A stretch of DNA of 64,000 nt from Paraspadella gotoi (taxonomy: Eukaryota > Animalia > Chaetognatha): NCBI GenBank assembly GCA_051294375.1, contig CM119271.1, positions 7,678,162-7,742,161 on the forward strand. Direction: 5' to 3'. Below are positions 1,432 to 7,071 of the stretch, in pieces. The translations under genes were made by a program, and so were the position numbers. A model generated the notes under the pieces. That model ran no database searches. It was not told the DNA's origin and worked only from the letters and a program-made list of their open reading frames with translations. Positions within the stretch are counted from its first letter, which is position 1; the number at the start of each line of letters is the position of its first letter.

Positions 1432-4400
1432 ATGTCGGGGCCTCCTTACTTGCCGCCCTTTTACCAACATCAGGGCATGGGAGGCTTTTACCCGCCTGGT
1501 GCGGCTCCGCAATTTCAGGGCCTCACTTATCCTCAGCAATTTCCGCACCAGCAGTCGCCACCCGCCGCGTTTCCGGTCTCCCTGGCGCAAGCTCCGCCTC
1601 CTCATCCGTTCCAGCAACCGCCGCCGCCCCACTCCGCCCATTTTCCTCCCCAGCAAATGCCTTCCCCGCAAGCCCGGCCGTCCTACCCCGCCAGTCAGGC
1701 GAATCACGTCAATCATCACAATCAGGCGTCGCATCCTCACGGACAGTCGAATTACGCCCCGGCCAATCACCAAGCCAACCACCAGAGCGGCGGCGGTGGT
1801 GGTCATGCGTCCAATCAACGGTCGCAACATCATCAGCCGCATCATCAACAGCAGAATCAACAACAGCCATCCCGTCATCAAAAGAAACACAACGAATCTC
1901 ACCAAAATTTCCAGTCGTCGTCTTCGTCCGCGCACCCGCCGCGCGGGCCCCAGCAGGCTTGGGGCGAGGACGCTCGCGGGTCGCAGCCCCGATTCGAAAA
2001 GGAGCGCTCCTCCTCCTCTTGCCCTTCGGGCGGCGCCAAGGAGTCTGTCGACTCTGGCAGCGCCAACGGATCCAGCGTTCTTAACAACGACTTTGGCGAC
2101 ATGGATCAAGCGGCCAAGCAATACGCCAAGACAGCTCCAAAGACGCTGCCGCCCCGAGCGGACGCCGCCGGCGACGATGGGCGCCCGCTCATCGAGGACA
2201 CGAACCGCTATCGTCAACAACACGGGCTCATCGTGTGGGACTCGTCAATGGACGGACACCACGGCGACGCGGACGCCGAAGTCCCGCCCCCATACGAGAG
2301 ATTTGAGGATTTCGGGGGTTTGTCGCGGGCGCAACTCGACTGCTTCCACCATCACGGGTTCGAGGCTCCGACGCCGATCCAGGTTCGTAAAGTTATGTAG
2401 CACTTTGTTTTGTTCTCGCTGAATTCTCTTGGAAAATTCCAATTATTTAATTTTAGATTTGAATTTTCCTAATCATCAACAACAACAACAGTAACAAATA
2501 TCGGAGACGATTTTTCAGACTCTGAGACTTTTAACAGTTTACTGATACATAAACAACAATAAAAATAAATTATCATTCAAGAACTAATCAACTTTAAAAT
2601 ATTTTTTTAGGCCCAAACCTGGCCGATCGCCATGGGACAGCGCGACATCGTCTCCATCGCCAAGACGGGTTCCGGCAAGACGCTGGCCTTTCTCCTTCCC
2701 GCCTATAAAAAGATGGACGCGCGCAACGGAAAGCGCGGCTCTAACGGAGCCATCAACGCCCTCATCCTCGCACCGACGAGGGAGTTGGCCACGCAGATCC
2801 AGGAGGAGTCGGAGAAGTTCGGCCAGGCGGCGGGCTACTACAGCGCCGTGGCCTACGGTGGCGCCGCCAAACGCGACCAGCTCCGCGCCATCCAGGGCGC
2901 CTCCATCCTGGTTGCCACTCCGGGCCGTCTCAATGACTTTCTCGATTCGGGACAGATCGACCTCTCCTCCGTCTTCTATCTGGTCTTGGACGAGGCCGAC
3001 CGCATGCTCGACATGGGCTTCGAGCCGCAGATCCGCTCCATCGTCCGTCGAGTCCCGCGCAAGCGACAGACGCTCATGTTCTCGGCCACTTGGCCCGAGG
3101 AAGTCCGTCAGCTTGCCCACGACTTTCTCGACAGGCCCGTGCACATTCAGCTGGGCGACCCTTACCAGCTGCAGGCAAATGACGATATTGAGCAGCACTT
3201 GGTGTTGCTACGGTCTGGCGAGGATAAGGACGACGAGTTGATATCGCTGCTCAAAACAAGGGCCAAAAACCGGAGCAAGCGGGCCGGGGATGAGCTGGTG
3301 AGGATTTTATAGATATCCATACTTTTTGGTTCTAAAGAAAAAAAAATTACCAGTAGTTAAGCTTTCTCAGTTAAAATTATTTTTTTTGTAACATTTCGAA
3401 TGAGTTTCGTTTTGTTTTTTATGATTTGTTTGGTAGTTTATTCCTTTGCGTTTATAAAAATTAATGCAAACTATTATATTGTCGAAAGACTCTCACCATG
3501 TATTTTATATTCCCTTTCCCCTCCCCCCCAAAAAAAAGGTGCTCATCTTCGTCGCTCGCAAAAATACCTGCGACTTTGTAACAAACATGTTGAAGCGTGT
3601 GGGAATCCGCGCGGCCGCCATGCACTCGGACCGTGACCAATCCTACCGAGAGCAGACCCTCGCTAACTTCCGCGAAGGCAAGACGCCTGTGTTGGTGGCG
3701 ACGGACGTTGCGTCGCGCGGTCTCGACGTCCGCGGCGTTGGCGTCGTCGTCAACTACGATCTGGCCAACACCACCGAGGACTACGTCCACCGCATCGGCC
3801 GCACTGGCCGCGCTGGAACTAAGGGCGAATCCGTCACGTTCCTCACGCGCAGCGGAGAGGACACGTGGAAGGCCATGGGGATTATCGAGGTCATGCAGAA
3901 GACGGGACAGCCTGTCCCACCGGAAGTGCAGGACATGGTGGACCGCATGGTTCGGCGGCAGCAGATCAACAAGGAGCAGCGGGCCCACGAGAACGAACAG
4001 TTCACGAAGGTGTTGATGGTGGCGGAGAAACCTTCGGTGGCCAAGATGATCGCCGAGCATCTCTCCGGCGGGCGGCTGCGAACGCGGCGTGGTCAAAGCA
4101 GAGCGCTGCAGATTTTCGAGTTCATCAAGTGGTTTTCGCCGGCTCAGCAAAAGTGCAAACTCATGGTCACCTCCGTCGTGGGTCACATCTTCGGGTTGGA
4201 CTTCGAGGAGCAGCGCGTCCGCGACATCGCCGACCTCTTCGACGCTAAGGTCAAGAAGCAGGTGGAGGACAACACCAAGAAGCTCCGGGTCATCGAGCAC
4301 CTGCAAGAGCTGGCCGAGGAGGCCGAGTACCTTGTCTTGTGGCTCGATTGCGATCTCGAAGGAGAGAACATTGGGTTCGAGGTTATCTCACTCTGCCAGG

Positions 4401-7071
4401 AGTGGATCCTCTACGACAACGTTTACAGAGCCAAGTTCTCCGCACTTACCCAGCAGGAGCTGGTCAACGCCTACCAGAACTTGGCCAGGCCGGACAAGCA
4501 CGCCGCCATGAGCGTCGACGCGCGGCAGGAGATGGATCTCAAGATCGGGGTCAGTGGGAGTGGACTAATTAAAATGTTTGAAAATATTATTATTAAATAT
4601 TGTTAAACTTTTATTAACCACTCTTTCGTCTTAATCTCATCATAATGATTATGAACGTTGTAAGCTATTTCAAGTATCGTTACTATATTAAAATAGTTGG
4701 AAGAAAAAATATTCAAGTGGATTTTAACTTATCTAAATAATAATATAATTTTGCTTCTCTTAACTCAGGTGGCGTTCACCCGTTTAATGACTCGAAGCTA
4801 CTTGGACATGGCGCGGGAAAAGTTTCGCCTCAAAGATCAGAAATGCATCAGTTACGGTCCTTGCCAGACGCCCACTCTCTCATTTTGCATCAAAAGACAC
4901 CGCGAAATTCAAAATTTTAAGCGGGAACCGTTTTACATTGTTTCTCCTACATTGAAATTAGGCCAGGTAAAATAATACGTATTGCTTAAGTTTTTCGTTT
5001 GAAGTTGTTTGAGTAGTAAACGAGTAAAAAGTACATGCGTATGTTTGAGAAATTTTCTGTTCATATTACATAATACTGAAAGATTTAAGTTATTTTATCT
5101 TTATCAGCGGCTGCTGCAGCGCTACTCTTAATTTTAGTTAAGTCAAAAGTTTAAAATAAAATCGACTTTTCTGACAGAACCGCGAGATTACCGTGAAGTG
5201 GTCGGACGGCGACCGCATCTCCAACAAGCGCGACCTTCACGAAATAGAAGGCGCCATCGAGGCGGCGCGGACCGGACGAGGCGCCGTCGTGCGCGGCTAC
5301 ACCGAGCGGCGCGTCGTCGTCAACAAGCCCGTCGGTCTCAACACCGTCACTCTCCTGAAAGCCTGCTCCAAGGGGCTCGGTATGTCCCCCATCCAAGCGA
5401 TGAAGTTCGCCGAGCATCTCTACACTTCCGGCTACATCTCTTATCCGCGGACGGAGACGACCGCCTACTCGCCTACCTTCGATCTCGTCGCCGCGCTGCA
5501 GGAGCAGGCCGATCATCCCAACTGTGAGTTAATGGAGGGCGATTTGAAGATTATAAAATGACTTTTTCCCGTCTTCCGTTCTTATTTTTATTTTCTTTCT
5601 CAGGGGGCAGAACCGTAACGTATTTGCTCAACAGCGGAAGAATAAGAACCCCTGAGAAAGGACATGACGTGAGTACAAATTTGTAAATCGTTTTCCCCTT
5701 GAATTATTTATTCCTATTTCCCAACCGGTCTTTTAATGTCCACACTTTTTCTCAACCCAGATGGGCGACCATCCCCCGATTACCCCTATGCGCGCCGCCC
5801 CCCGCGACGAGTTCTCCAAGGGCAACGAGTGGCGCATCTACGACTACGTGACGCGCCACTTCATCGGCACCCTGCACGACGACATGGTCTACTTGGAAAA
5901 GCAGCTGCAGGTCACCGTTAACGGCTACCGCTTCTCCTACACCTGGCACGAGGTCGTCGACCGCGGGTTCACCTTCGCCATGCCCTGGAAATTCAAGAGT
6001 CTCCAGCTCAACGTCCTCGAATGGCAGATGCCGCAGCACCTGCGCGAGGGAGAACACATCCCAGTTTCCCGTTTCGAGACCCGCACGGAGCACACTCGCC
6101 CGCCGGATTACCTGCAGGAGAGCGAGCTCATCTCTCTGATGGACAAGCATCGCATCGGCACCGATGCCTCTATCCCGCAGCACATCAAGAACATCTGCGA
6201 CCGGCACTACGTCGACGTCTGCGGGCCCGGCGAGGACGGCCAGAAGGGTGAGATCATCCCTCAACGACCTGGCGGATTCAAGGGAGGCCGGGGCGGCGGC
6301 AAAGACGGCGGTCAACAACAACGGGCCGCCTCGCGCCACATGGTCCCGCGTGCTTTTGGTCTCGCTTTTCTCTCCTGTTTTGAAGAGTTGGACAGAGAGC
6401 TGTGCGACCCGCCCATTCGCGCCTACATGGAACAGCAGTGCGGAAAGATCGCCACGAGAGAGGTGGAGAAGAACGAGGTGGTGCAGAGCAACTTGCAGCT
6501 CTTCCTACAAAAGTTCCTCTCGTTCCGGAGCAACATGTCCAAAGTGGACAGGTTCTTCGCGCCTAAGAACATGCAGTTGGCTCAGGCCAATGGGTTCCAG
6601 GAGCACGGGAGAGGTGGAGGAAGAGGAGGAGGAGGGGGAAGAGGAGGAGGAGGTAGAGACTATTATGCTAACTACGGAGGATACGGTGGAGAGGGGGGAG
6701 AGTGGGAAGAGAACGGAAGAGGAGACAGGGGTGGAAGAGGTGGAGGAAGAGGAAGGGGTGGAGGTGGTGGACAGTATAGAAACGGAGGACGAGGTGGTTA
6801 TCAGTCCAACTCGTTTAATGGAGGAGGCGGTGGCGGAGGTGGTTACGGCGACTACGAACGTTCCGACTCCGGTCGGGGCGGACGTGGCGGACGCGGTGGG
6901 CGCGGCGGCGGTAACGGAGGTGGCGGAACCTACGGCGACGACCAACGTGGTCCCCGGGGCGGCAGCAGCGGCGTGGAAAACCACGACGGCGCCAGCCGCG
7001 GCGGATACAGGGGCAGAGGCGGCGACAGAGGACGCCGCGGCGGTGGGCACCGAGGCAACGCGCATTCCTAG
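1432..7071 (+). CDS. DEAD-box RNA helicase (DBP2/DDX5 family) - topoisomerase III-beta fusion protein, about 1522 aa, 7 exons
   Basis: Exons 1432-2382, 2611-3297, 3539-4549, 4769-4966, 5178-5523, 5604-5668, 5761-7071. All introns are GT..AG and phase-compatible. Splicing restores motifs across junctions: PTPIQ|AQTWP, DLKIG|VAFTR, HPN W(split codon) [16 protein letters not shown]. The helicase C-terminus and the Toprim N-terminus share exon 3 in one frame. Confidence 0.9.
2300..3950 (+). other. DEAD-box helicase module of the fusion gene (DBP2/DDX5/DDX17/plant DRH1-like)
   Basis: Q motif [11 protein letters not shown]; motif I AKTGSGKT (2659-2682); Ia APTRELA; GG; Ib TPGRL; II DEAD (2989-3000) followed by [47 protein letters not shown] (3788-3817). 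Confidence 0.93.
4010..6560 (+). other. TOP3B: Type IA topoisomerase (TOP3B-like) module of the fusion gene
   Basis: Toprim motifs [17 protein letters not shown] and [44 protein letters not shown]; catalytic [10 protein letters not shown] (Tyr at 5442-5444); [33 protein letters not shown]. These fit the TOP3B rather than the TOP3A variants as recalled. Confidence 0.9.

Follow-up and report, generated by a model that had tools for sequence, protein, structure and literature searches.

A DEAD-box helicase joined to a sister paralog of TOP3B in a single reading frame of the Paraspadella gotoi genome

Type IA topoisomerases act on single strands, and for those that work on RNA both the cellular role and the source of the single-stranded substrate are open questions. 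A 64,000-nucleotide stretch of contig CM119271.1 from the chaetognath Paraspadella gotoi (hereafter the window) raises the question of whether an animal could carry such an enzyme and an RNA helicase in one protein, since a preliminary description of its letters reported a gene at positions 1432-7071 of the forward strand in which a DEAD-box helicase runs into a TOP3B-type topoisomerase. Here we ask whether this gene is real, to which families its halves belong and what their union might do.

The fusion gene is real and consists of a single spliced frame. Its seven exons join into one reading frame of 1,522 amino acids (aa) with no internal stops, and all six introns are GT-AG and have a GC content of 24-36%, compared with 45-63% in the exons. 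The preliminary description had placed the junction within exon 3 of a single polypeptide, with no compositional break, and both statements hold. This one exon contains Pfam Helicase_C (E 5.6e-28) plus Toprim (E 2.5e-14), with VLMVAEKP starting at 4010; DEAD is found in exon 2 and Topoisom_bac in exons 4, 5 and 7, and the catalytic-Tyr motif GYISYPRT lies at 5430-5453. The GC content at third codon positions (GC3) is 0.79 before the linker, 0.82 within it and 0.84 after it, and synonymous codon use does not differ between the helicase and topoisomerase halves (chi-square p 0.82).

Sequencing runs bear out both the splicing and the junction. Run X1, which is RNA by the tool's guess, backed by its six spliced joints, gave one contig of 4,608 nucleotides (nt) that spans 1200-6605 and omits 228, 241, 219, 211, 80 and 92 nt; these gaps coincide exactly with the six predicted introns. 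The DNA runs X2 (possibly the source of the window itself), X7 and X9 have no splice joints, and all three bridge 3812-4009, so that the helicase-Toprim junction is crossed in 4/4 runs. The contigs of all four end at a repeat near 6606-6661, which leaves the RGG (Arg-Gly-Gly) tail unbridged. About a dozen sites differ between X1 and the window, and hence X1 is likely to come from another individual; 12 of the 13 listed coding-exon substitutions are synonymous. Loose ends also occur on either side of 2472-2655 in another contig of X1, within intron 1 and the beginning of exon 2.

The preliminary description knew of no characterised protein with this layout; the layout is not unique to this genome. 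Exon 3 was used as the query against proteins of 591-2000 aa, with the 7,989 candidates sharing most words being scored; motif VI followed by the Toprim motif was found in 93 of the best 120 of 5,791 matches. Because the read support consists of assembled contigs and not of full-length single molecules, one might suspect an error of assembly or gene modelling, or read-through from one gene into its neighbour. However, the junction falls within a single exon, every run bridges it and it recurs in these relatives, and we reject this explanation as having a vanishingly small probability.

The 93 proteins divide into two types, which were defined before any tree was built. Type A (43 proteins; motif I is IA(K/R)TGSGKT) includes, among the matches listed, the closest relatives of this gene, with up to 82% identity, and in addition Hydra vulgaris LOC100215195 and Clytia hemisphaerica XP_066923695.1, the only named animals with the fusion among those matches, proteins of Symbiodinium, Durusdinium, Effrenium and Gymnodinium smaydae, and EG_transcript_2406, which from its prefix is presumably Euglena gracilis. 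Type B (50 proteins) has a linker of 213-290 aa and occurs in diatoms, Porphyridium and Rhodosorus, with examples from Seminavis, Cylindrotheca and the latter two genera. Helicase-less paralogs are also among the matches listed (Amoebophrya, Euglena longa and Namystynia), a few of which begin with the Toprim motif and are perhaps truncated. Database labels on these proteins are 'uncharacterized', 'TOP3B', 'RH46' and 'DNA topoisomerase'. Since the family spans Hydra, Clytia and dinoflagellates, a recent private fusion is rejected. Four proteins with two matching stretches each, considered as reverse-order fusions (P0176, P0239, P0188 and P0230), turned out to be tandem helicases, and of the viral contigs two stretches matched a pattern, neither of which encodes a relative.

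The DEAD-box core is complete, as first described, with motifs Q, I, Ia, GG, Ib, II (DEAD), III (SAT), IV, V and VI all present; 40/40 type A helicases share identical DEAD, SAT, PTRELA, TPGRL and HRIGRTGR. Judged by its closest counterparts, this half is of the DBP2/DDX5/DDX17 type. The best solved helicase matches of the Hydra protein are Dbp2 and DDX17 (343 and 333 bits, versus 255 for DDX3X), and a Foldseek search with the Hydra model returned Dbp2/DDX17 as its helicase fold match. Helicase trees place type A among unnamed stand-alone DBP2-like helicases, and strict orthology to DDX5 is thus not shown. An FGDM-type helix upstream of the core is recognisable in most of the type A relatives shown, namely hydrozoans, dinoflagellates and the EG_transcript protein.

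The topoisomerase half had been called a complete TOP3B-type enzyme, a statement that stands for the catalytic core but not for the remainder, in which the Cys-rich C-terminal domain is absent and the kinship is with a sister paralog. The TOP3 marks are present (Toprim Glu and DxD, Lys after the Glu, Tyr followed by Pro-Arg, and the second metal site), and at all 14 positions checked, whether catalytic, metal-binding or neighbouring, every fusion row with coverage carries the same residue. Ten of these are residues named for human TOP3B (PMC11743793 section 7), and the equivalents of E9, K10, D117, D119, Y336, R338, E340, D386, H387 and D511 are all kept. The type IA catalytic core is complete.

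Elsewhere this half departs from canonical TOP3B. The zinc-finger domain that makes up the Cys-rich C-terminus of TOP3B is absent in the window protein, where three Cys and no CXXC occur after residue 1250; no CXXC follows the catalytic Tyr in the window protein or in any type A row, and full-length canonical TOP3B loci have 6-8. The W73 column is a gap in 22/22 type A rows and W in 11/11 canonical rows. Of the TDRD3-contact residues of TOP3B (named in PMC5296760), F265, I269 and M272 are replaced by S, D and E in the window protein by sequence comparison, with F265 being retained in 11/11 canonical rows, 0/9 animal-side type A rows and 8/13 dinoflagellate type A rows. A segment of domain IV measures 40-48 aa in 22/23 type A proteins, 25-34 in type B, 33-52 in helicase-less members and 8-9 in canonical TOP3B, and its insert is a mark of the whole paralog clade.

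Trees agree with this picture. The best solved topoisomerase match of the Hydra protein is human TOP3B (435 bits; TOP3A 299), and in a FastTree analysis of 91 rows of at least 480 aa, types A and B and the helicase-less proteins form one clade (support 1.0) that is sister to canonical TOP3B. IQ-TREE on 39 of the 91 rows gave the same grouping (SH-aLRT, the Shimodaira-Hasegawa-like approximate likelihood ratio test, 98 and 99), and forcing five animal-side rows together with three canonical TOP3B rows was rejected (approximately unbiased test, p-AU 6e-48). These trees used LG+G4 with a quick search and a single TOP3A row, and their long branches meet near the root; the outgroups are translated genomic loci, assigned by their scores against the Protein Data Bank (PDB) to canonical TOP3B (L011) and TOP3A (L010). 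On the sequence evidence, the topoisomerase half belongs to a paralog of its own, the sister of canonical TOP3B, and membership of the latter is rejected on the sister clade, the missing C4 zinc finger and W73, and the eroded TDRD3 patch. Helicase-less members of the paralog are likewise without the zinc tail and W73, so both losses predate the fusion.

The helicase appears to have been acquired twice. A type B helicase scores best against DDX3X (262 bits; Dbp2 218), and in helicase trees type B rows adjoin a named DDX3X, type A lying among DBP2-like proteins. A single clade of types A and B, a test chosen after the FastTree results, was rejected with the topoisomerase tree (p-AU 1e-6) and with the helicase tree (p-AU 0.006; 40 of 98 rows), and one origin for both types is rejected accordingly. 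We disfavour a single fusion whose helicase was later exchanged, given that type A is nested within the helicase-less members (support 100, IQ-TREE). A line of evidence that does not depend on the trees is a module of helices, about 100 aa long, which helicase-less members and type B share in front of Toprim (carriers include P0088, P0066, P0119 and P0071). A profile of this module scored above the best shuffled control, albeit weakly, in 25/31 type B linkers and 0/17 of type A. Hence, type B probably arose when a DDX3-like helicase was added in front of the module, and in type A a DBP2-like helicase is likely to have replaced it. An Atlas search with the module gave scores all under 0.8 and no confident look-alike. 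Two type B proteins (P0097 and P0102) have an extra C-terminal match to an NFACT RNA-binding domain, which is weak (28.9 bits versus 29.8), and the N-termini of P0032, P0096, P0103 and P0178 look by eye like organelle presequences, unlike the Pro/Gln-rich head of the window protein.

Structure models give each half its expected fold, a TOP3B-like core and a DEAD-box-like RecA fold. AlphaFold2 models of the Hydra core (1,123 aa, 58 rows) and of the two-domain piece encoded by exon 3 of the window had a mean predicted local distance difference test (pLDDT) of 85.9 and 85.0 and a predicted template modelling score (pTM) of 0.64 and 0.62, respectively. Foldseek placed human TOP3B first for the Hydra model, with a template modelling score (TM-score) of 0.93 by target, a root-mean-square deviation (rmsd) of 2.4 A and 37% identity, and the four-domain toroidal type IA fold is present in this model. 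In both models the helicase extension is connected to the first Toprim strand by a 27-residue helix, with pLDDT 78-88 on entry. This predicted helix, the second of the linker, continues directly into Toprim strand 1.

What might such a protein do? We lean, if only by a little, towards a self-contained untangler of RNA and R-loops in which ATP-driven unwinding feeds strand passage. RNA binding would fall to three parts, namely the Pro/Gln-rich head, the RGG tail and the basic domain IV insert, which would so recruit the protein to ribonucleoprotein (RNP) granules or nascent transcripts. The DEAD-box core with ATP would then pry a short RNA:RNA or RNA:DNA duplex apart, and the linker helix would keep the released single strand close to the Toprim cleft for cutting by Y1038, after which a second strand would be passed and the cut resealed. 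Strand passage would relax or unlink, not supercoil positively. The helicase could thereby substitute for the substrate loading done by the zinc tail and TDRD3 in canonical TOP3B, and the fusion would hard-wire the partnership of TOP3B with DDX5. In humans these two form a TDRD3-independent complex that resolves R-loops, cutting either strand after unwinding, according to the review PMC10969213 (section 4.6, citing Saha et al. 2022). According to other sources, the TOP3B core is active alone and the tail boosts binding (PMC9363430), TDRD3 enhances TOP3B (PMC11743793 section 15), and Dbp2 unwinds RNA-DNA duplexes with the help of disordered tails that are needed and tether RNA (PMC10193013). 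Moreover, the paralog was joined on a separate occasion by a DEAD-box helicase of a second subfamily. Of the ATP-coupled RNA or R-loop topoisomerase that had been proposed at the outset, the role in which unwinding feeds strand passage thus seems plausible.

Several points weigh against this proposal. With such modest pTM values, the two models do not establish that the domains are fixed relative to each other. The presence of conserved catalytic residues is no sign of RNA activity: TOP3A has the same chemistry yet does not cut RNA (PMC9363430). W73, which stacks on base -6 in TOP3B, is missing in the fusion, and substrate choice may differ for this reason. F265 is often kept in dinoflagellate type A. 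Finally, the helicase-less members suggest that a helicase is not required to offset the losses of the zinc tail and W73.

One alternative is that the linker is only a tether, with both enzymes active and co-located at granules or nascent RNA and neither controlling the catalytic cycle of the other. The moderate pTM values, the long and variable linkers of the 50 type B proteins and the existence of helicase-less members are all consistent with this. However, the type A linker is 65-66 aa in 42/43 short-linker proteins, and its length varies by no more than one residue across dinoflagellates, hydrozoans and this animal. It is also 61-71% identical among relatives (proportions of nonsynonymous and synonymous differences: pN 0.22-0.27, pS saturated), a conservation about equal to that of the rest of the topoisomerase core and one that a slack tether would not need. 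A tether is therefore possible but rather doubtful. A complex prediction of the Hydra RecA2 and linker with the topoisomerase core scored 0.00 with controls that did not fold, and it favours neither reading.

The enzyme might instead be a DNA-only topoisomerase, the helicase stripping RNA from R-loops and only the DNA strand being relaxed or unlinked. Indeed, RNA activity is patchy among type IA enzymes and cannot be predicted from the active site, and DBP2/DDX5 unwind RNA:DNA hybrids. We nevertheless consider this unlikely, given that the paralog is sister to the RNA-active TOP3B and not to TOP3A (as far as one TOP3A row can tell), that an RGG tail is present and that two RNA helicase subfamilies were recruited.

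Among the genomic gene calls grouping with those of Hydra and Clytia, many cease to match right after DLKIG and continue as unrelated sequence; this break is at the position of the third intron of the fusion gene, and canonical TOP3B loci have no break there. These observations suggest that the gene and its relatives descend from an animal gene that already carried the intron, which is deduced from the ends of proteins rather than from DNA. As for its origin, the gene may be ancient and have been lost many times over, or it may have been acquired from a protist. The neighbouring genes NPRL3, MIEAP and DUF229 indicate that the host genome is that of an animal (Table 1). A search with NPRL3 gave two matches, one of them to Patella vulgata (49% over 49% of the query), and a search with DUF229 gave eight, with no named close relative among them. 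Peptides of the two Tyr/Ser/Pro-rich open reading frames (ORFs) in the window recur, by eye, upstream on the reverse strand, near 17810-18205, 20235-20723 and 26591-27055, which suggests that these pieces are decayed inverted copies.

Table 1. Positions of the fusion gene, its parts and neighbouring features in the window.
Feature	Position	Strand	Remarks
Exon 1	1432-2382	+	Pro/Gln/Ser/His-rich low-complexity N-terminus, conserved FGDM helix, N-terminal extension, helicase Q motif
FGDM-type helix	2089-2130	+	aa 220-233; predicted helix, pLDDT about 70 in Hydra model
Exon 2	2611-3297	+	RecA1 domain of DBP2/DDX5-type DEAD-box helicase; motif I 2659-2682, DEAD 2989-3000, SAT 3082-3090
Exon 3	3539-4549	+	RecA2 (motif VI 3782-3811), linker and Toprim in a single frame
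Helicase C-terminal extension and linker	3812-4009	+	66 aa; predicted two helices
Toprim domain	4010-4549	+	E709, K710, D816, D818 = human E9, K10, D117, D119; W73 segment missing
Exon 4	4769-4966	+	Topoisomerase domain IV, start of domain II; preceding intron sits after DLKIG
Exon 5	5178-5523	+	Domain II arch with eroded TDRD3-contact patch; domain III with Y1038 (5442-5444), R1040, E1042
Exon 6	5604-5668	+	65 nt, domain III
Exon 7	5761-7071	+	D1089/H1090, domain II, D1221, domain IV insert, core end, RGG tail, stop codon
Domain IV hairpin insert	6220-6336	+	Gly-rich, basic, about 35 aa longer than canonical TOP3B; predicted partly disordered
RGG tail	6580-7068	+	47% Gly, 15 RGG; directly after core, zinc-finger domain absent before tail
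NPRL3 last coding exon	1-512	+	Pfam HTH_NPRL3 E 1e-17; 920 nt upstream of fusion gene
MIEAP (mitochondria-eating protein) family exons	9307-10360	-	
Two Tyr/Ser/Pro-rich ORFs	33432-35648	+	No Pfam match
Multi-exon DUF229 gene	46218-48787	-	
Retrotransposon-like ORF	58340-62239	+	Aspartyl protease, reverse transcriptase, RNase H-like domains; ends at run of N

A literature search, with most subscription journals outside its scope, found no description of the fusion or the paralog. A TOP3B phylogeny of animals by Moreira and colleagues reportedly exists and could mention the Hydra protein. In the available parts of two reviews neither fusion nor paralog is mentioned. Reviews describe two TOP3 enzymes in eukaryotes, and among type IA enzymes they credit reverse gyrase alone with using ATP hydrolysis by a helicase domain for positive supercoiling. 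Adding a third TOP3 paralog, fused to DEAD-box helicases on two independent occasions, would enlarge this picture, and the double fusion would lend evolutionary support to the reported TOP3B-DDX5 partnership. The broadest form of our proposal, which we offer tentatively as possible rather than probable, is that eukaryotes have a third, overlooked TOP3 paralog, sister to TOP3B, lacking the zinc tail and twice fused (to DBP2- and DDX3-type helicases), and that its fused form is an ATP-gated topoisomerase for RNA or R-loops, the RNA-world counterpart of reverse gyrase, in laboratory animals such as Hydra and Clytia. With a DDX5-type helicase and a TOP3B-type enzyme on one chain, helicase-topoisomerase coupling on RNA could be tested by point mutants and one structure, and Hydra and Clytia offer genetics for the fusion protein.

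Among known systems, reverse gyrase (TIGR01054; PDB 4DDT, 1GKU) is the obvious comparison, as it too has a superfamily 2 (SF2) helicase module N-terminal to a type IA topoisomerase. The fusion could conceivably be its functional analogue, using ATP for directional strand passage, either to overwind DNA or to anneal melted or R-looped regions again. The domain order is the same (RecA1, RecA2, Toprim, topoisomerase core), and Foldseek aligns the Hydra model with reverse gyrases end to end. However, the TM-scores are 0.37-0.40 with an rmsd near 20 A, and three full-length type A relatives score 115, 125 and 95 bits with TIGR01054, mostly over the topoisomerase half and far under the cut-off of 471.7. 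No latch insert was found in the second RecA domain, in which Helicase_C positions 18-110 match over 93 residues and a plain, DEAD-box-like RecA fold is modelled; the latch is needed for positive supercoiling (PMC7614492). Of the reverse-gyrase-like architecture first proposed, only the domain order thus survives. Membership of that family is rejected on the TIGR01054 score and the lack of a latch, and we regard the analogous function as highly improbable.

The remaining comparisons lie closer. Type B fusions share with this gene the TOP3 paralog, the domain IV insert, the missing zinc tail and a DEAD-box helicase in front, but their helicase is DDX3-like and their longer linker keeps the pre-Toprim module. 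DBP2/DDX5/DDX17 (PDB 8ARK, 6UV0-6UV4) share all motifs and the C-terminal extension helices, whereas in the fusion one long helix prolongs this extension into Toprim, the RGG tail follows some 650 aa later and the family-specific FGDM helix stands upstream. Human TOP3B (PDB 5GVC, 5GVE, 9CAH), which works with TDRD3, has in common with the fusion the toroidal core, the catalytic residues and an Arg/Gly-rich tail, and differs in having the C4 zinc finger, the W73 segment and the TDRD3 patch, and neither insert nor helicase. The human TOP3B-DDX5 complex combines the same enzyme classes, with the same proposed TDRD3-independent sequence of unwinding and then unlinking R-loops, although it consists of two canonical-type proteins, while the fusion is one chain built on a different TOP3B paralog. 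The fusion therefore falls outside both reverse gyrase and canonical TOP3B, but it may work like TOP3B together with DDX5.

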